From Gracilibacteraceae bacterium (lineage in GTDB: Bacteria; Bacillota; Desulfitobacteriia; Desulfitobacteriales; Syntrophobotulaceae), in the NCBI GenBank assembly GCA_031263945.1, contig JAISEW010000014.1, positions 1-34,695 of the forward strand: a stretch of DNA of 34,695 bases, read 5' to 3'. Below the pieces are notes generated by a model that made no database searches, was not told the origin of the DNA, and saw nothing but the letters and a program-made list of their open reading frames with translations. This document shows, piece after piece, positions 28,813-34,695 of this stretch (position 1 is the stretch's first letter; each line of letters starts with the position of its first letter). Position numbers and translations under genes: made by a program.

Positions 28813-28937
28813 GCAATTTTTATAAAAGGGATATTTAGGTAAAACTGGGTTGTGTTGATAGTTGACGTTGCCCGCGGGACGCGGCATAAACGCGATAGGC
28901 GCGATAGCCAGGTTGGTTTGACGGGCCGTCGAAAAAT

Positions 28938-28966
28938 TTGACAAAAAAAATACCGCCATGTATAAT
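28938..28966 (+). promoter_or_regulatory. Perfect-consensus sigma-70/SigA promoter at the left edge of the low-GC island
   Basis: TTGACA (28938-28943), a 17-nt spacer, then TATAAT (28961-28966) with TG immediately upstream of the -10. It faces the GIY-YIG/DGQHR/PAPS-reductase operon, about 230 nt upstream of its first ATG. Confidence 0.7.
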
Positions 28967-29194
28967 CAAGATACAATAGCTATTTGACCTCGCCGCGAAA
29001 TGCAACTTCGGTTTAACAAATCTTATCGTAATTGAATCCGCACATACACAACAGCAGGTTATTGCCCCCGAAAACATAATCGCCGAGCTGGGCACGCAAC
29101 CAAATGCCAAAGACGTTTTATACTTACGGATACATTGACAGAAGCACGATCGATATTGATGAAATCATGGATAAGGCCAGAAGGAGGATGAGCG

Positions 29195-29713
29195 ATGGGA
29201 GAAATTGACCTTGTTGGCGCCAATATCGCCCTGTCAAGTATTCAATTTATACTAAACACTACTTTGTGGGATAGCTTTAATCCGAAGGTTATGAGCATTA
29301 TCTCACAGCCGCAGTCCTGGCGCGAAGTAAAACTGCTTGCTCCCGATGGAAAAAGTAATCCGCAGCTTCGTACAATCCCAAACGACAAAGGCGGCATATA
29401 TTTGATTCTGGCCAAACCAAACATTTTGCCTGAATCGTGCCTGTACTTAATGTACATTGGACGCGCTCATATAACGGCAGATCACAATTTAAGAAAACGC
29501 TGTTCGCAATATCCCACGGAAAAAGAACGCCCTAAGATAAAGCGACTGATTGAGCAATGGGGGCGATATTTATATGTCAGATACCTCCCGTTAGACGGCA
29601 ATGACATAATAGACGTTGTCGAAGACGAACTTATCAATATAATCCTGCCTCCTTTCAATGACAGGATACCAAATAAAAAAATAAGCGCTGCGGTCAAAGC
29701 GTTTGCCATGTAA
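29195..29713 (+). CDS. GIY-YIG domain nuclease-like protein
   Basis: 172 aa with AGGAGG 7 nt upstream. Motifs in order: GGIYLILAK (GIY), LMYIGRA (YIG), LRKR (conserved Arg region), EDELINIILPPFND (catalytic Glu ... Asn). Confidence 0.75.
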   Translation: MGEIDLVGANIALSSIQFILNTTLWDSFNPKVMSIISQPQSWREVKLLAPDGKSNPQLRTIPNDKGGIYLILAKPNILPESCLYLMYIGRAHITADHNLRKRCSQYPTEKERPKIKRLIEQWGRYLYVRYLPLDGNDIIDVVEDELINIILPPFNDRIPNKKISAAVKAFAM

Positions 29714-29726
29714 AGGGGTGTGAAAT

Positions 29727-30998
29727 ATGAAAATACCGGCCATACGCGCTAAAGTTGGAATATGGGTTTACTATGTTTCAACACTGACTTACGCGCAGGT
29801 TAAAGAACATGTTAAAATGGTGGACAAGGAACTCCATAAATCGGCTGTTCTCAGTGAAATGCTGCAGCGGAGCATAACAAACAACTATAAACAAATTGCC
29901 GCCTATATCATGCAGCAGGAGGAGCGTTTTTTCAATTCTCTGGTGCTGGCTGTATATGACGGCGACCCGCAATGGCATGAAATCCGCTTGGATTATGGCG
30001 ACGACGAAGAATACTACGATATCGGGCTGCTTGAGTTAACGGGCGAAGAAAAAATCTTTCCTGTGGACGGGCAGCACCGCGTTGAGGGCATTAAAAAAGT
30101 TCTCCGCGAATCTGATCAGTTTAACGAAGAACGTATTCCGGTGATTTTTATCGGTCACAGAAACGACGACGACGGCATGAAACGCGCGAGAAGACTGTTC
30201 AGCACTCTGAACCGTTACGCAAAACCGGTTTCCCAAAGAGATATCATCGCCCTTGACGAAGACGATTCTGTAGCCATCGCTTCGCGCGAGCTGATTGAAA
30301 ATCATCCGTTATTTGAAAACGAGCGGATATTGGATTCTAAGACCAAGGCTATTCCCGAAAACAATAAAAAAGCGTTTACAACGATCATCACTTTTTATGA
30401 GTGTAATTATGAGTTGATGCATCTTTTCCTAGAGTCCAGGACGGTGAAAGATTCTGACGGAAGGAAAATGCGCGGGCGCTCAAAGGCAAGAGAGTATATC
30501 CGATTCAGGCCGGATCAGCCGGAGCTTGACGGATTTATCAGCCTGTGCGTTGATTTTTGGAATGCCGTTTCCTCTGAAATTTCCTGCGTTCGCGAGTATC
30601 TGGCCGCGGCTCCCGCCGCCGAACGCTTCCGTAACAAGGTTGACGGGGGCTTATTGCCGTTTCGGCCCGCCGCCTTGATTCCTCTCGTTAAGGCGGTCGT
30701 TCATATCCATAAAAAAACCGGAGAATCATTTAATGAAGTGCTTCGAAAAATTAATACACTGCCTTTAAAAATATCTGACAATATTTGGGCCGGAATCCTT
30801 TGGGATAAAAATAACCAGAAAATGATCATGAATCACCAAAAGGTTGTTGAGCTTTGTCTTGTTCTTCTCTATGATCCCGCGTTATCATCAGAAAAAGAAA
30901 AGCAACATTTGGTGGATGGATATGCTTCCGCAACTCAAACGCGCAAAGAAGAGGCTGAAAGCGCGTTGGGTATCTGCGTAACGAAAAGTGATACCTGA
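29727..30998 (+). CDS. DGQHR-domain protein (DndB-like, ParB/Srx fold)
   Basis: 423 aa. It has the literal DGQHR motif in FPVDGQHRVEGI, the downstream RRLFSTLNRYAKPVSQRDIIALDEDD motif as in DndB, and the N-terminus IPAIRAKVGIWVYYVSTLTYAQV typical of the family. Confidence 0.8.
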   Translation: MKIPAIRAKVGIWVYYVSTLTYAQVKEHVKMVDKELHKSAVLSEMLQRSITNNYKQIAAYIMQQEERFFNSLVLAVYDGDPQWHEIRLDYGDDEEYYDIGLLELTGEEKIFPVDGQHRVEGIKKVLRESDQFNEERIPVIFIGHRNDDDGMKRARRLFSTLNRYAKPVSQRDIIALDEDDSVAIASRELIENHPLFENERILDSKTKAIPENNKKAFTTIITFYECNYELMHLFLESRTVKDSDGRKMRGRSKAREYIRFRPDQPELDGFISLCVDFWNAVSSEISCVREYLAAAPAAERFRNKVDGGLLPFRPAALIPLVKAVVHIHKKTGESFNEVLRKINTLPLKISDNIWAGILWDKNNQKMIMNHQKVVELCLVLLYDPALSSEKEKQHLVDGYASATQTRKEEAESALGICVTKSDT

Positions 30999-31037
30999 GC
31001 AGTTGCGTATTTGATAAACCTGAAAAGAGGATTGACC

Positions 31038-32768
31038 ATGTGGTGCAATAGTTGTCACCGCGAGACGACGAAAGATAAATGCGAACTTTGCGGGACGGAA
31101 ACCGAACGGGAAATCCCTCTTGAAGTTTATTGGTGTTCGACCTGCAGAGTTCCCGTGATTAAATACGTAAGCGCTGTTGACCGTGACGCTTGCCCTGCTT
31201 GCGGTAGGGAGACTGAATATTTATGCGCCGATTTACGCCCCGTGTTCCCGGAGGAACGTCTGCTATTTGAGATAATCCAAGGGAAGCCGCTCGCGCACAT
31301 CAATCATAGCGTTTGGGCATCGAACAACCGTTATTATATAGACGGAAAGCCGCTTGTGATTGGTTCGTCTTTCTATAAGAAACTCTCACCTGACGCGATA
31401 CGGACACAACTTGAAAAATATGCACCCAATAACTGCTATGAAGACTTCGACGCAATGGTTGTGCGCTTTGTCGAGGCGAACAAAGTTCGGCTTGACGAAA
31501 TCGTCAGTGAAGCCCATAGCTTCATAAAAGATACCGCCGCGCAATATCCGAACGAGAGCGTTGTCGTCTCGTTTTCGGGCGGCAAGGATTCTACCGTTAC
31601 AGCGGACTTGGCTATACGCGTTCTCGGTGATCCATGCCTTGTGCATGTCTTTGGGAACACAACGCTGGAGTTCCCTATGACGCTTGATTATGCCGCCCGT
31701 TATCGCAGGGACAATCCAAAAGCTATATTTAAGACCGCCATAAATAACGAACAGGATTTTTATTCCGTCTGTGAAGACATTGGCCCACCCGCGAGAATGT
31801 TACGTTGGTGTTGCTCAATGTTCAAAACGGGACCTATTACGCGCGTATTGAACAGGTTGTACGACGACAGCGGCATATTGTCATTCTACGGCATACGCAA
31901 GTGCGAGTCGCTTTCCCGAAGTCGTTATAACCGCGTGGAAGACAATGCAGAGTCGGTGAAGATTCAAAAGCAGAAAGTCGCCTCGCCGATTTTTCTGTGG
32001 AAAGACATTGACGTGTGGCTGTATATCCTCGGCGAGGGTATAGACTTCAATGACGCTTACCGTATCGGCTATGACCGCGTGGGGTGTTGGTGCTGTCCGA
32101 ATAACAACGCGAGGGCGCAGTTTCTCTCGAAAATCTATATGCCGGTGCAGTTTGATAAGTGGCGCAACTTTCTTGTTGGCTTCGCAAAACGCATCGGCAA
32201 GCCCGATGCGGAGGAGTATATTGACAGCGGCGCGTGGAAAGCGCGGCAGGGAGGCAACGGCGTGGCGGCGGCGCAGGACATTAAAATCCGCTACACGAAT
32301 TGCACGACCGAAGCACACGCGAAAGTTTATCGGCTAAACAAGCCGATTGATAACAGCTTTAGCAATCTTTTTATACCGCTCGGGCGTATTGCGCCCGAAC
32401 TGGGACGAAAACTCATAAATGAGATTATGGTTGTGGATGTGAATACGAACGTGCCGATACTTTCGATACAACCGTTCGCACAGGACGGGTATGACTACGC
32501 TGTCAAAGTCAAGACGCTAAACGTAGCGAGGCACGACGATTTACAGCGAATGGTCGGCTATCAGATAAAAAAGTACAACGCTTGCCGGAAGTGCTTAAAA
32601 TGCGAGTCGCTTTGCCGGCACAGGGCAATTTCTATTGTCGGCGGTGAATACCACATCAGCAATGAGCGGTGCAAGCGGTGCAAAATGTGCGTAACAGCGA
32701 AATACCTTGAGGGCGGTTGCCTGATGGATAAGTATTTGAAAACGAAAACAGGGGCGGCGAGTATATGA
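31038..32768 (+). CDS. PAPS-reductase-family PP-loop ATP pyrophosphatase (DndC/SspD/BrxP-like) fused to an N-terminal double zinc ribbon and a C-terminal 2x[4Fe-4S] ferredoxin-like motif
   Basis: ATG at 31038 (the ORF track begins at 31011). N-terminal CNSC-x9-CELC and CSTC-x17-CPAC. PP-loop VVSFSGGKDST. GCWCCP motif. C-terminal CRKCLKCESLC and CKRCKMC...C. Confidence 0.85.
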   Translation: MWCNSCHRETTKDKCELCGTETEREIPLEVYWCSTCRVPVIKYVSAVDRDACPACGRETEYLCADLRPVFPEERLLFEIIQGKPLAHINHSVWASNNRYYIDGKPLVIGSSFYKKLSPDAIRTQLEKYAPNNCYEDFDAMVVRFVEANKVRLDEIVSEAHSFIKDTAAQYPNESVVVSFSGGKDSTVTADLAIRVLGDPCLVHVFGNTTLEFPMTLDYAARYRRDNPKAIFKTAINNEQDFYSVCEDIGPPARMLRWCCSMFKTGPITRVLNRLYDDSGILSFYGIRKCESLSRSRYNRVEDNAESVKIQKQKVASPIFLWKDIDVWLYILGEGIDFNDAYRIGYDRVGCWCCPNNNARAQFLSKIYMPVQFDKWRNFLVGFAKRIGKPDAEEYIDSGAWKARQGGNGVAAAQDIKIRYTNCTTEAHAKVYRLNKPIDNSFSNLFIPLGRIAPELGRKLINEIMVVDVNTNVPILSIQPFAQDGYDYAVKVKTLNVARHDDLQRMVGYQIKKYNACRKCLKCESLCRHRAISIVGGEYHISNERCKRCKMCVTAKYLEGGCLMDKYLKTKTGAASI

Positions 32769-33655
32769 GCGTTAAATATAGGGCGCACGATACTTTTTTC
32801 ATAAGAAAAGGCTGGCTCAGTAAAGGCGTGAAGAATATCATAGTCGACCCCGCCGTCTTTGTGAGCCGCGACGCGAACCCGATGGATACGCTCGGCATGG
32901 GCGCGAATATGGTTAAGGCTCTCCGCTACTGGTTGCTGGCGGTAGGGCTGACGGAAGAATACAAAGGACTTAATAACCGCAACGAACAAAAGCTTACGCT
33001 TCTCGGCGAAATGGTTCACGAAAACGACCCGTATATGGAGGAACTTGGCACACTGTGGCTTCTGCATTATAGACTTGCCGCGAACAAAGAAGATGCTACG
33101 GCGTGGTATTTTTTCTTTAACGAGTTTCGTTCGCTGGAATTCACGCGTGATGATTTTATAATACAGACAGAGAATTATCTGCGCGAGCTTGACGAAACCG
33201 TAGCAGAGCGGTCGATTGAGGATGATTACAATTGCGTCATCAATACCTATATACCGCGAATCAAACTCAATCCCAAGAAATTCGACCCGGAGGACAACAT
33301 TGACTGTCCGCTCGGTGAGTTGGGCCTGATTGACATTGTGAACAAGAAGGCTAAAGTATATAAGAAAAGTTCGCCGAAGAAAGACACGCTCCACCCACTG
33401 ATTCTGCTTGCCGTTATACTCGACCAAGCAAACGGAGCGCGGGAGGTTCGTATATCAGAGATTCAGACTAACGCTCGCAATGTCGGAAAAGTGTTCAATC
33501 TGGATGTAATCGCGCTGACCGCATTGCTGTACAAATTGGAAATTTTAGGGTTTATTAAGGTGGTGCGGACAGCGGGGCTTGATGTTATAAAAATCGAAAC
33601 CGACCTTGACTTCTATGGGAGCGTTCGCGAATATTACCGCGCTATCAACGGATAG
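32765..33655 (+). CDS. DUF4007-like protein (SspB-like by my recollection)
   Basis: 296 aa. The N-terminus HDTFFIRKGWLSKG matches the remembered DUF4007 signature (tF-x-lR-x-gWL-x-K). An ATGA overlap couples it to the PAPS-reductase gene. Confidence 0.65.
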   Translation: MSVKYRAHDTFFIRKGWLSKGVKNIIVDPAVFVSRDANPMDTLGMGANMVKALRYWLLAVGLTEEYKGLNNRNEQKLTLLGEMVHENDPYMEELGTLWLLHYRLAANKEDATAWYFFFNEFRSLEFTRDDFIIQTENYLRELDETVAERSIEDDYNCVINTYIPRIKLNPKKFDPEDNIDCPLGELGLIDIVNKKAKVYKKSSPKKDTLHPLILLAVILDQANGAREVRISEIQTNARNVGKVFNLDVIALTALLYKLEILGFIKVVRTAGLDVIKIETDLDFYGSVREYYRAING

Positions 33656-33677
33656 GACTGTGAGGTGATAATGGGTT

Positions 33678-34695
33678 ATGCCATTGAATAAAATCAGCGT
33701 TGCTAAGGGATTTCAGACCGCCGTCAACATCGCTTATGACTTAAATAACAATGACAAGGTGCGCGGGTTTATCCCTACGCAGTCGAGTCTTGATATAATT
33801 GAGGATGTGCTGCTCTCTACCGCCGCGAGCGCAACGACTCGCGCCCGTATACTGATTGGCGCGTATGGCAGAGGCAAGTCACACATAGTCCTCGTGCTTT
33901 TGGCGCTCTTGTTCGGCAGAGACAAAGGGCTATTTGCCGCGCTTTTGGAGAAAATGAAGAAGAACAATCCGCCGCTGTATGAGTTTGCGGTTGAGTATCT
34001 GGACAGTGGTCGTCAATTGTTGCCTGTGGTCGTGCGCGGAAGCAGCGCAAGCCTGTCCTCGTCATTTTTGAGCGCGTTGCAACTGACGCTGAATGATGAG
34101 GGCTTATCTGATGTTATGCCCGAAACGCACTTTCAAGCGGCAATCGCAACAATTGAGAGTTGGAAGAAGTCTTACCCTAACACCTACAAGCAGTTGATAA
34201 AGGATTTGCCTTGCTCAATCGGCGACTTCATGTTAGCACTCCGTGAATATGATGTTTTCGCTTATGAGCGATTTGAGAGTATCTACCCGCAATTAACGTC
34301 AGGCAGCGCGTTCAACCCGTTTCTCGGATTTAATATTGCCGAACTTTACGAGAGCGTTACAAAAGGTGTTAAGGCGCGAGGGTACGGTGGCATCATTGTC
34401 GTATATGATGAGTTCAGCAAGTATTTGGAATCAAGTATCGCCACCGCGTCTATCAGCGATATTAAGCTGCTACAGGACTTTGCGGAGAAATGTGACCGCA
34501 GCGGTGAACGGCAAATGCACCTACTTCTTATTTGTCATAAGGACATCGCCAACTACATTGACGGCGGTCTCCCGAAAGAAAAGGTGGACGGTTGGCGCGG
34601 CGTTTCAGGGCGATTTAAGCATATCAACCTCCACAACAACTACACGCAGATGTATGAGATTATTTCGGAGGTTGTAAAAAAAGACTATAAATTTT
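33678..34695 (+). CDS. P-loop ATPase, BrxC/PglY/SspC (DUF499)-like, 5' partial (continues beyond the window)
   Basis: Not in the supplied ORF track. I translated it by hand from the ATG at 33678 (GAGGTG 10 nt upstream) and it stays open for 339 codons to the window end. Walker A is IGAYGRGKSH and Walker B IIVVYDEFSKY. Confidence 0.8.
   Translation, partial: MPLNKISVAKGFQTAVNIAYDLNNNDKVRGFIPTQSSLDIIEDVLLSTAASATTRARILIGAYGRGKSHIVLVLLALLFGRDKGLFAALLEKMKKNNPPLYEFAVEYLDSGRQLLPVVVRGSSASLSSSFLSALQLTLNDEGLSDVMPETHFQAAIATIESWKKSYPNTYKQLIKDLPCSIGDFMLALREYDVFAYERFESIYPQLTSGSAFNPFLGFNIAELYESVTKGVKARGYGGIIVVYDEFSKYLESSIATASISDIKLLQDFAEKCDRSGERQMHLLLICHKDIANYIDGGLPKEKVDGWRGVSGRFKHINLHNNYTQMYEIISEVVKKDYKF

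Follow-up and report, generated by a model that had tools for sequence, protein, structure and literature searches.

In Bacteroides salyersiae, phosphorothioate (PT) is made by BrxP of BREX type 4, in which a PAPS reductase and DUF4007 form one polypeptide. For proteobacterial proteins, a complex of SspA with SspD has been demonstrated. The build of BrxP and of a subset of SspD has been described as a PAPS reductase followed by an alpha/beta domain, called Mog1p/PsbP-like, and a 4Fe-4S ferredoxin-like region (PMC12839542, NAR 2026). According to the same paper, this long arrangement is found in just a subset of SspD, and the Cys dyad specific to DndC is absent from the BrxP type, which carries the alpha+beta and ferredoxin modules instead.

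The stretch of DNA analyzed here (hereafter the window) comprises 34,695 nucleotides, and its features of interest are collected in Table 1. The sspD-like gene very probably encodes a sulfur-inserting PP-loop enzyme, a long SspD of an Ssp-type DNA PT module, its predicted product corresponding by orthology to the first 520 residues of BrxP.

Table 1. Positions of the features at the sspD-like locus, in the numbering of the window.
Feature	Positions	Strand	Remarks
Promoter candidate TTGACA-17-TATAAT	28938..28966	+	12/12 consensus match only
orf172, first operon gene	29195..29713	+	GIY-YIG-like motif order; conserved GG[IV]Y...YIGR...LRKR...E.EL...N
DndB-like DGQHR-domain accessory gene, 5' of sspD	29727..30998	+	Pfam DndB 1.5e-33; TIGR03187 3.5e-29
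sspD-like gene, long-form (BrxP-type) PAPS-reductase-family PP-loop enzyme	31038..32768	+	576 aa
Zinc ribbon 1 (C3, C6, C15, C18)	31044..31091	+	C3xxC6-x8-C15xxC18
Zinc ribbon 2 (C33, C36, C52, C55)	31134..31202	+	C33xxC36-x15-C52xxC55; YWCxxCxVP...CxxCG
N-terminal linker module, before the PP-loop domain	31215..31547	+	RPVFPEE motif, small beta-sheet, helices
PP-loop / PAPS-reductase domain	31560..32102	+	Pfam PF01507 match over residues 175-355
Alpha+beta insert domain, residues ~376-505	32163..32552	+	AF2 strands/helices at residues 418-515
Ferredoxin-like region, eight Cys, predicted 2x[4Fe-4S]	32565..32732	+	C516/519/522/526 and C545/548/551/561
sspB (DUF4007)	32765..33655	+	Pfam DUF4007 4.6e-81; PADLOC SspB 6.1e-60
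sspC 5' part, cut by the window end	33678..34695	+	Walker-A ATPase, GAYGRGKSH; Pfam DUF6079

All of the Cys and PP-loop motifs reported in the initial annotation were found in the plus-strand reading frame of the sspD-like gene. A ribosome-binding site, AGAGGA, lies about 7 nt 5' of the start codon ATG 31038, and the same start is used by 110 of 118 close homologues with both zinc ribbons. The database gene call for the contig starts at GTG 31242, with the result that both ribbons are lost. The 576-aa protein contains nine CxxC motifs (overlapping count) against a mean of 1.2, and none of 20,000 shuffles reached nine. Its AF2 model has a pLDDT of 94.3 and a pTM of 0.92. Neither of two antisense ORFs within the gene (minus strand, 31881-32318 and 32561-33427) was retained, because homologues of the plus-strand frame number in the thousands.

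Membership in the PAPS-reductase/PP-loop family was confirmed by profile and by structure. The Pfam model PAPS_reduct (PF01507) scored 93.4 bits against a cutoff of 22.5 (2.1e-26), and Foldseek of the AF2 model returned the PAPS/APS reductases 1sur, 2goy and 7lhr at E values of about 1e-8 (TM 0.70-0.73 on target); TtuA was also matched. When the full model was compared with PDB and BFVD, the PAPS-reductase core alone was matched, and no full-length or DndC/SspD structure was found there. The SGGKDS motif occupies residues 180-185 (nt 31575-31592), of which G182, K183, D184 and S185 do not vary among 60 sequences, and GCWCCP occupies residues 349-354 (nt 32082-32099). A further Cys pair, C258-C259 (RWCC, nt 31809-31814), had been overlooked earlier. 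Together with C350 and C353 it forms a CC-X90-CXXC motif; CC-X~80-CXXC has been defined as the [4Fe-4S] site of APS reductases (PMC1175818). In the alignment with the APS reductase of M. tuberculosis (7lhr), RWCC corresponds to ECC and GCWCC to GCAPC, which provide the cluster ligands. Conservation of Cys residues was counted in 83 diverse full-length representatives; C258, C259, C350 and C353 are kept in 80-82 of them and C352 in just 19. These facts suggest that C258, C259, C350 and C353 form a predicted [4Fe-4S] site of the APS-reductase type.

The presence of this cluster motif would also agree with a metabolic function, namely a ferredoxin-dependent APS/PAPS reductase of assimilatory sulfate reduction, similar to archaeal homologues with fused Fe-S domains. 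Some archaeal homologues of APS/PAPS reductase do carry additional 4Fe-4S domains (PMC6286981), and the top NCBIfam matches of our protein were the archaeal PRK13795 models (3e-58), with the ferredoxin end included. The PRK13795 scores, however, were far under the curated cutoffs (198 against 456 and higher), and TIGR00434 and TIGR02055 (CysH/APS reductase) gave 34 bits against cutoffs of 165 and 235. The catalytic Cys near the C-terminus that every sulfonucleotide reductase requires is absent: the stretch from residue 354 to 421 contains no Cys, and there is no EC.[LI]H motif. Moreover, its neighbours in a defence island of low GC content are sspB and sspC, and none of the genes nearby belongs to sulfate assimilation. 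We therefore regard a metabolic reductase as extremely improbable.

The C-terminus had been described as resembling a dicluster ferredoxin, and this description is sustained by the family profile, which matches polyferredoxins (FwdF, 2.4e-18) and the clostridial ferredoxin 1fdn (2e-7), and by the eight Cys residues, which are conserved in 77-81 of the 83 representatives. The first motif, CRKCLKCESLC, covers residues 516-526 (nt 32583-32615). The second, CKRCKMC at residues 545-551 followed by C561, is non-canonical (CxxCxxC-x9-C, no CP), and Pfam Fer4 scored 17.4 bits on this sequence, under its cutoff of 21.1. In the alpha+beta domain, which separates the PP-loop domain from the ferredoxin-like region, C422 (nt 32301-32303) is kept in 65 of the 83 representatives. 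Since this separate domain and the APS-reductase-type Cys motif had both been missed, the three-part build proposed earlier was correct in the motifs that it named but not in the number of parts, and at least five modules should be counted. Members of the family normally have this order of zinc ribbon(s), PP-loop domain with CC...CxxC, alpha+beta domain and eight-Cys ferredoxin region.

At the N-terminus, the CxxC motifs are present and the predicted strands fit a zinc-ribbon-like fold. The CxxC pairs were as described in the initial annotation, but the spacings were not: they are x8 instead of x9 in ribbon 1 and x15 instead of x17 in ribbon 2. The Cys residues of ribbon 2 are conserved in 69-74 of the 83 representatives. 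In a set of 60 sequences that includes DUF4007-fused BrxP forms, C33 and C36 never vary, whereas at least 90% keep C52 and C55. Ribbon 2 forms a three-stranded sheet in the AF2 model (E28-33, E38-43 and E58-63). Ribbon 1 was found in just 4-7 of the 83 diverse representatives, yet in 110 of 118 close homologues, and by this distribution is an extra ribbon specific to the clade. Its motif, WCxxC...CxxCGxET, is like that of ribbon 2, and ribbon 1 may therefore be a tandem duplicate. Thus the expected conservation of the Cys motifs among orthologues was observed for ribbon 2, the PP-loop and the eight ferredoxin Cys residues (about 70-82 of 83), with the exception of ribbon 1.

The linker module that follows the ribbons has the invariant residues P68, F70, E73, G103 and N148. 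Residues 1-172, with the ribbons that the initial annotation supposed to be of a nucleic-acid-binding type, were modelled separately with a pLDDT of 92.8, and Foldseek of this model against PDB gave no significant match (best E value 0.33). The weak matches include the zinc-binding proteins PolD DP2, Spt4, Nop10 and MCM. The zinc ribbons are probably structural or docking elements.

More than 7,000 homologues are present in the database, and the best 120 are all about 571 aa long, with a query coverage of 95-100%. Among the named relatives, the nearest are from a Synergistales bacterium (81%) and from Cloacibacillus evryensis (74%), and thousands of close relatives occur in gut, rumen and anaerobe genomes. 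A tblastn search against plasmids gave one good relative, in Treponema saccharophilum (61%), whereas the other matches listed spanned just part of the query; the search yielded no canonical SspD. The PADLOC model of BrxP matched residues 60-572 (model positions 22-517 of 779) at 1.7e-72, and the same build is already contained in PMC12839542. The architecture had been called unusual on the understanding that it was not the standard form of SspD or BrxP. It cannot be so regarded, because both BrxP and a large SspD subset have this build as their standard form. Judged by its homologues, the gene is an ordinary member of the large, already described long SspD / BrxP family.

The surroundings of the gene were then compared with orthologous loci. 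The promoter candidate sits at the boundary where the GC content falls from about 0.6 to about 0.45. The product of orf172 matched nothing in Pfam (to E = 5), NCBIfam, PADLOC or PDB, the last of which was searched both with the single sequence and with a 3-sequence profile, and it is the motif order alone that suggests a likeness to GIY-YIG proteins. Among 83 other related loci, the DndB-like gene occurs in just two (L005 and L023), in both of them paired with orf172. Downstream, the TGA of sspD (32766-32768) overlaps the ATG of sspB at 32765 (ATGA), and the two genes are translationally coupled. For the order of the genes farther downstream, we counted the 61 orthologous loci whose sequence extends 6.5 kb or more downstream. 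The order SspD-SspB-SspC-SspA was found in 54 of these, and a cysteine desulfurase gene follows sspC in 55; the desulfurase of one locus (L002) matched PADLOC SspA at 2.9e-36. Beyond SspA, the orthologous loci have PbeA-like genes (31 of 61), SspF/G or DUF262-type restriction genes.

These counts bear on the proposal of the initial annotation that the enzyme is a self-contained sulfur inserter, whose own ferredoxin and zinc-ribbon modules stand in for the desulfurase and for DndE-type partners, so that no SspA/DndA would be expected. Indeed, no desulfurase gene is seen in the window, and the enzyme does have extra redox-type and zinc modules. The window, however, ends inside sspC, about 1 kb into a gene of about 3.6 kb (SspC orthologues have about 1,210 aa), and it is after sspC that the desulfurase gene is located in most of the orthologous loci. 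Because most of these loci run in the order SspD-SspB-SspC-SspA, the inference of a self-contained enzyme is an artefact of the window edge. Nor does a missing DndE call for such an explanation: Ssp/BREX-4 systems use SspB (DUF4007), the functional counterpart of DndE, and sspB adjoins sspD here. In addition, a ferredoxin domain moves electrons and does not mobilise cysteine sulfur, and PT was made by BrxP with BrxC in a reconstitution carried out solely in a host with SufS (PMC12914056). A self-contained sulfur inserter is accordingly very improbable.

The gene could instead be regarded as BrxP of a BREX type 4 system, split into a PAPS reductase gene and a DUF4007 gene, with PglZ and BrxL lying past the window end. 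BrxP is the best PADLOC match of the protein, and the sspB product also matches the C-terminal part of the PADLOC BrxP model (positions 540-767). Fusion of the PAPS reductase with DUF4007 is stated to occur just "frequently" (PMC12839542). The ATPase fragment, however, fits SspC far better than BrxC (PADLOC, 5.9e-38 against 5.7e-19), and the cysteine desulfurase gene that follows sspC in 55 of the 61 loci is as in SspABCD. Three of the orthologous loci (L001-L003) have no PglZ or Lon/BrxL within 10 kb. When seven other loci were sampled, six had PbeA-, SspF/G-, DUF262- or MzaB-like genes in place of PglZ; in the seventh, a distant locus from Ktedonobacter (L082), a PglZ-like gene is found nearby. 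On this evidence a split BREX type 4 BrxP seems unlikely, and a long SspD of an Ssp-type module is the reading that we prefer.

The gene lies in the operon orf172 - dndB-like - sspD - sspB - sspC, which was very probably acquired horizontally and in which sspA should follow a little beyond the window end. For a long SspD of this type, the following mechanism may be considered. A persulfide would be formed by SspA or by a housekeeping cysteine desulfurase and handed to SspD. The PP-loop would then spend ATP in converting the target phosphodiester into an adenylate; this step is proposed because ATP pyrophosphatase activity of SspD has been reported and because the title of the TdpC paper names an adenylated intermediate. 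As in APS reductase, the [4Fe-4S] cluster on C258/C259/C350/C353 would lie in the active site, where it may bind or position sulfur and phosphate. Electrons from a cellular low-potential donor would be relayed by the dicluster ferredoxin, the persulfide would be reduced to sulfide, and the sulfide would displace AMP. DNA nicking/binding and target selection would be supplied by SspB and SspC.

We put forward only tentatively, as a possibility that is less probable than its opposite, that long SspD/BrxP proteins carry out a ferredoxin-dependent, three-cluster insertion of sulfur, unlike DndC and short SspD, and that the invariant N-terminal zinc ribbon is a docking element new to these enzymes, duplicated in this clade. 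In such a three-cluster enzyme, the dicluster ferredoxin would be wired to the PP-loop [4Fe-4S] cluster and would reductively cleave the incoming persulfide. As a finding of a genome scan the gene adds little, since its architecture is family-standard and published and the missing desulfurase is an effect of the window end. The protein is nevertheless a reasonable subject for biochemistry, because a confidently modelled chain of 576 aa combines three predicted cluster sites with one or two zinc sites.

Comparison with known systems places the protein as follows. With the assimilatory APS reductases (7lhr of M. tuberculosis and 2goy of P. aeruginosa) it shares the fold (TM about 0.7 on target), and the [4Fe-4S] motif aligns residue for residue. 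It differs from them in being without the catalytic C-terminal Cys and without thioredoxin-dependent chemistry, in adding the zinc, alpha+beta and ferredoxin modules, and in its defence-island context. The archaeal PRK13795-type proteins align over residues 102-553 (model positions 178-625 of 635), whereas the N-terminal region differs. Since this alignment runs from the helices before the PP-loop to the ferredoxin end, the core-plus-ferredoxin arrangement is common to both. [quoted passage not shown] The DndC model TIGR03183, however, scored 22.9 bits against a cutoff of 290.4, and neither DndD nor DndE was found in the window, SspB and SspC being present instead.

Canonical SspD of the Vibrio cyclitrophicus / E. 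coli type has the same operon partners (SspB and SspC, with SspA, which is expected past the window end here), the same PP-loop core and the same presumed role as an ATP-dependent sulfur acceptor/inserter for single-strand PT. It appears to have no zinc ribbon, alpha+beta or ferredoxin modules, in view of the length and alignment of the PADLOC model and of the statement in PMC12839542 that the long form is a subset. The PADLOC SspD model (277 positions), which begins at the PP-loop, matched residues 176-305 alone (2.2e-9, model positions 3-132). By sequence, therefore, the protein is BrxP-like and not a canonical SspD. It differs from BrxP in that DUF4007 is a separate, coupled gene, that the ATPase is nearer to SspC and that a second N-terminal ribbon is added in this clade; the orthologous loci also have SspA and Pbe/SspFGH-type partners, not PglZ/BrxL. 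With BrxP it has in common the order of zinc ribbon 2, PP-loop, alpha+beta domain and eight-Cys ferredoxin and a partner ATPase of the same family (DUF6079), and C33, C36 and the ferredoxin Cys residues are kept in the fused BrxP representatives P0169, P0203 and P0233.

An AGAGGA ribosome-binding site lies some 7 nt ahead of the ATG with which the sspD-like gene opens. The database gene call on the contig, of 508 aa, starts at GTG 31242; it omits positions 31038-31241, and both zinc ribbons are lost with them. Since 110 of 118 close homologues have four CxxC motifs ahead of an RPVF motif, the long start at ATG 31038 is the correct one. The motifs listed in the initial annotation were all found in the plus-strand ORF, with spacings slightly different from those it gave. 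The product contains 27 Cys in total, and the nine CxxC motifs (overlaps counted) compare with 1.2 expected; at least nine were obtained in 0 of 20,000 shuffles.

Features of the sspD gene, its product and the surrounding operon (residue numbers are those of the SspD-like protein)
Feature	Position	Strand	Remark
sspD	31038-32768	+	576 aa, ATG start
Ribbon 1	C3xxC6-x8-C15xxC18	+	read in translated ORF
Ribbon 2	C33xxC36-x15-C52xxC55	+	read in translated ORF
PP-loop SGGKDS	residues 180-185	+	read in translated ORF
GCWCCP	residues 349-354	+	read in translated ORF
First ferredoxin motif	C516xxC519xxC522xxxC526	+	read in translated ORF
Second ferredoxin motif	C545xxC548xxC551-x9-C561	+	read in translated ORF
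Sigma-70 consensus, perfect, TTGACA-17-TATAAT	28938-28966	+	left edge of low-GC island
orf172	29195-29713	+	first operon gene
DndB/DGQHR protein gene	29727-30998	+	second operon gene
sspB/DUF4007	32765-33655	+	ATGA overlap with sspD
SspC-type ATPase, first 339 codons	33678 to window end	+	fifth operon gene

Pfam assigned PAPS_reduct to residues 175-355 (93 bits) and, below threshold, Fer4 to residues 539-554. The top NCBIfam matches were archaeal PRK13795 PAPS-reductase/ferredoxin models (3e-58), which reached the ferredoxin end; all were far under their cutoffs. Among the PADLOC models, BrxP matched residues 60-572 (1.7e-72), SspD residues 176-305 only (2e-9), and DndC gave 1e-7. The AlphaFold2 model, calculated from an input alignment of 60 sequences, was very confident (pLDDT 94.3, pTM 0.92). 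In this model ribbon 1 forms small hairpins and ribbon 2 a three-stranded sheet; a short beta/helical linker then leads into the PP-loop domain, and an alpha+beta domain (about 376-505) separates this from the Cys-rich C-terminus. In Foldseek searches of the PDB only the PP-loop core was matched, by PAPS/APS reductases (TM about 0.7 on target) and further by FAD synthase, CysD and TtuA, and the matches among viral models were single-domain phage PAPS reductases only. Residues 1-172, modelled separately (pLDDT 92.8), gave no significant match in a PDB fold search.

When 1.84 billion cluster representatives were scanned in full with HMMER, 2,690 relatives were obtained at E <= 0.001, 390 of them at <= 1e-30; conservation was counted in an alignment of 83 representatives, each 480 aa or longer. 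Conservation of the Cys motifs in orthologues, which the initial annotation had set as a test, was borne out in these proteins with the exception of ribbon 1. Each of the eight ferredoxin Cys is present in 77-81 of the 83, and C258, C259, C350 and C353 in 82, 80, 81 and 81, respectively; C352 is kept in only 19. The Cys of ribbon 2 are present in 69-74, the rest being N-terminal gaps. The curated alignment of 60 sequences shows no variation at the PP-loop residues, at C33, C36, C258, C350 and C353, or at six of the ferredoxin Cys. This conservation argues that the Cys motifs, save ribbon 1, are real functional sites. The Cys of ribbon 1 are found in 4-7 of the 83 representatives, and we regard this ribbon as a clade-specific addition; the resemblance of its WCxxC...CxxCGxET sequence to ribbon 2 suggests a tandem duplication.

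Two Cys outside the recognised motifs are conserved as well: C245 (31770-31772), kept in 55/83 representatives, and C422 (32301-32303), kept in 65/83. C422 is located where the alpha+beta domain begins and might serve as a persulfide carrier. One representative of 698 aa (P0201) carries, after its two zinc ribbons and PP-loop domain, an RNA polymerase alpha C-terminal domain (PF03118, 3e-25) in place of the usual C-terminus; the fusion may be real or the product of a chimeric gene call.

In an alignment with the M. tuberculosis APS reductase (7lhr), C258-C259 (RWCC) pairs residue for residue with ECC, and C350-x2-C353 (GCWCC) with GCAPC. In APS reductases, CC-X~80-CXXC is the motif that ligates a [4Fe-4S] cluster (PMC1175818). 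SspD would thus have three predicted [4Fe-4S] sites, besides two predicted zinc sites. The initial annotation did not contain this correspondence, and the available main text of PMC12839542 mentions neither it nor a family-wide N-terminal zinc ribbon. Identity as a sulfonucleotide reductase was rejected, since the C-terminal Cys that is essential for catalysis is missing; the EC.[LI]H motif was not found, and residues 354 to 421 contain no Cys. CysH and APS-reductase models scored far under their cutoffs.

The three-part architecture had been thought unusual. This view did not hold, because the architecture is already standard for SspD/BrxP. A word-indexed search retrieved 7,353 proteins at E <= 1e-5, and the best 120 of them, which include the window's own gene call, show 71-85% identity over 95-100% of the query at about 571 aa. 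Ribbon 2, the alpha+beta domain and the ferredoxin region are retained in representatives down to about 30% identity, a range that includes DUF4007-fused BrxP forms of 783-797 aa with the same modules. The available text of PMC12839542 (NAR 2026) describes an additional Mog1p/PsbP-like alpha+beta domain in the type-4 BREX PAPS reductase and notes that a subset of SspD has the same arrangement.

The sspD gene is part of a low-GC island (about 28900-34695; GC 0.44-0.51 versus 0.55-0.68 upstream) that adjoins ABC-transporter and arginine-biosynthesis genes. The fall in GC where the Ssp operon begins points to a defence island acquired by horizontal transfer, and the sigma-70 consensus is likely the promoter of the five-gene operon. 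The 172-aa product of orf172 had no match in Pfam, NCBIfam, PADLOC or the PDB; it carries a conserved GG[IV]Y-x14-YIGR...LRKR...E.EL...N in the same motif order as GIY-YIG. The pair of orf172 and the DndB/DGQHR gene recurs in two further SspDBCA loci (L005:16250-19723 and L023:400-2257), and might represent two regulators or an SspE-like module that has been split into a ParB-like sensor and a nuclease.

Of the 83 related loci collected, 80 come from GTDB species genomes and the other 3 from assemblies; reference proteins were used to scan the ORFs of these loci, and partners were counted in the 61 GTDB loci having at least 6.5 kb downstream. SspB was found in 58, SspC in 56 and a cysteine desulfurase in 55; all three occur together in 54/61, in the order SspD-SspB-SspC-SspA. 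The desulfurase of one locus (L002) matched PADLOC SspA at 2.9e-36. SspA was not visible to the initial annotation because the window contains only the first 1 kb or so of the approximately 3.6-kb sspC, and SspB, the counterpart of DndE in Ssp systems (PMC10853773), is encoded by the gene adjoining sspD. The proposal of a self-contained enzyme lacking such partners is therefore not supported. The genes after the module vary: a PbeA-like PLD-helicase in 31/61 loci, SspF and SspG (L010, L052), DUF262/HEC-05-like genes (L039, L050), MzaB-like genes (L004, L031) and a PglZ-like gene (L082 only). This variability argues for interchangeable restriction partners of what we take, from gene content, to be an Ssp-type modification module. 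Between sspD and sspB of Natranaerovirga hydrolytica sits a gene of 607 aa with an Mrr_cat domain (L001:11725-13548), for which a PADLOC search gave no match.

In relatives, SspD acts as an ATP pyrophosphatase and is bound by SspA in a complex (PMC7188994). BrxP and BrxC suffice for phosphorothioate (PT) synthesis in a host supplying SufS (PMC12914056), and the title of a Tdp-system paper cited there names a PT pathway that runs through an adenylated intermediate. We infer a mechanism in which the PP-loop of SspD would drive ATP-dependent activation of the phosphodiester, with the CC...CxxC cluster at the active site by analogy with APS reductase. Electrons from the fused dicluster ferredoxin would turn a desulfurase-derived persulfide into the attacking sulfide, with C422 as a candidate sulfur-relay residue, and the zinc ribbons might be structural or docking elements.

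The protein belongs to a known, published kind, and its value lies in the predicted Fe-S and zinc modules of the family. CysH identity was rejected on model scores and the absent catalytic Cys, and the protein is not DndC (TIGR03183, 23 bits versus a cutoff of 290). By sequence the nearest protein is BrxP, from which it differs in having no DUF4007 fusion and, as far as the window extends, no BREX context. By operon it is SspD, in a long form as compared with the canonical form of 277 positions.
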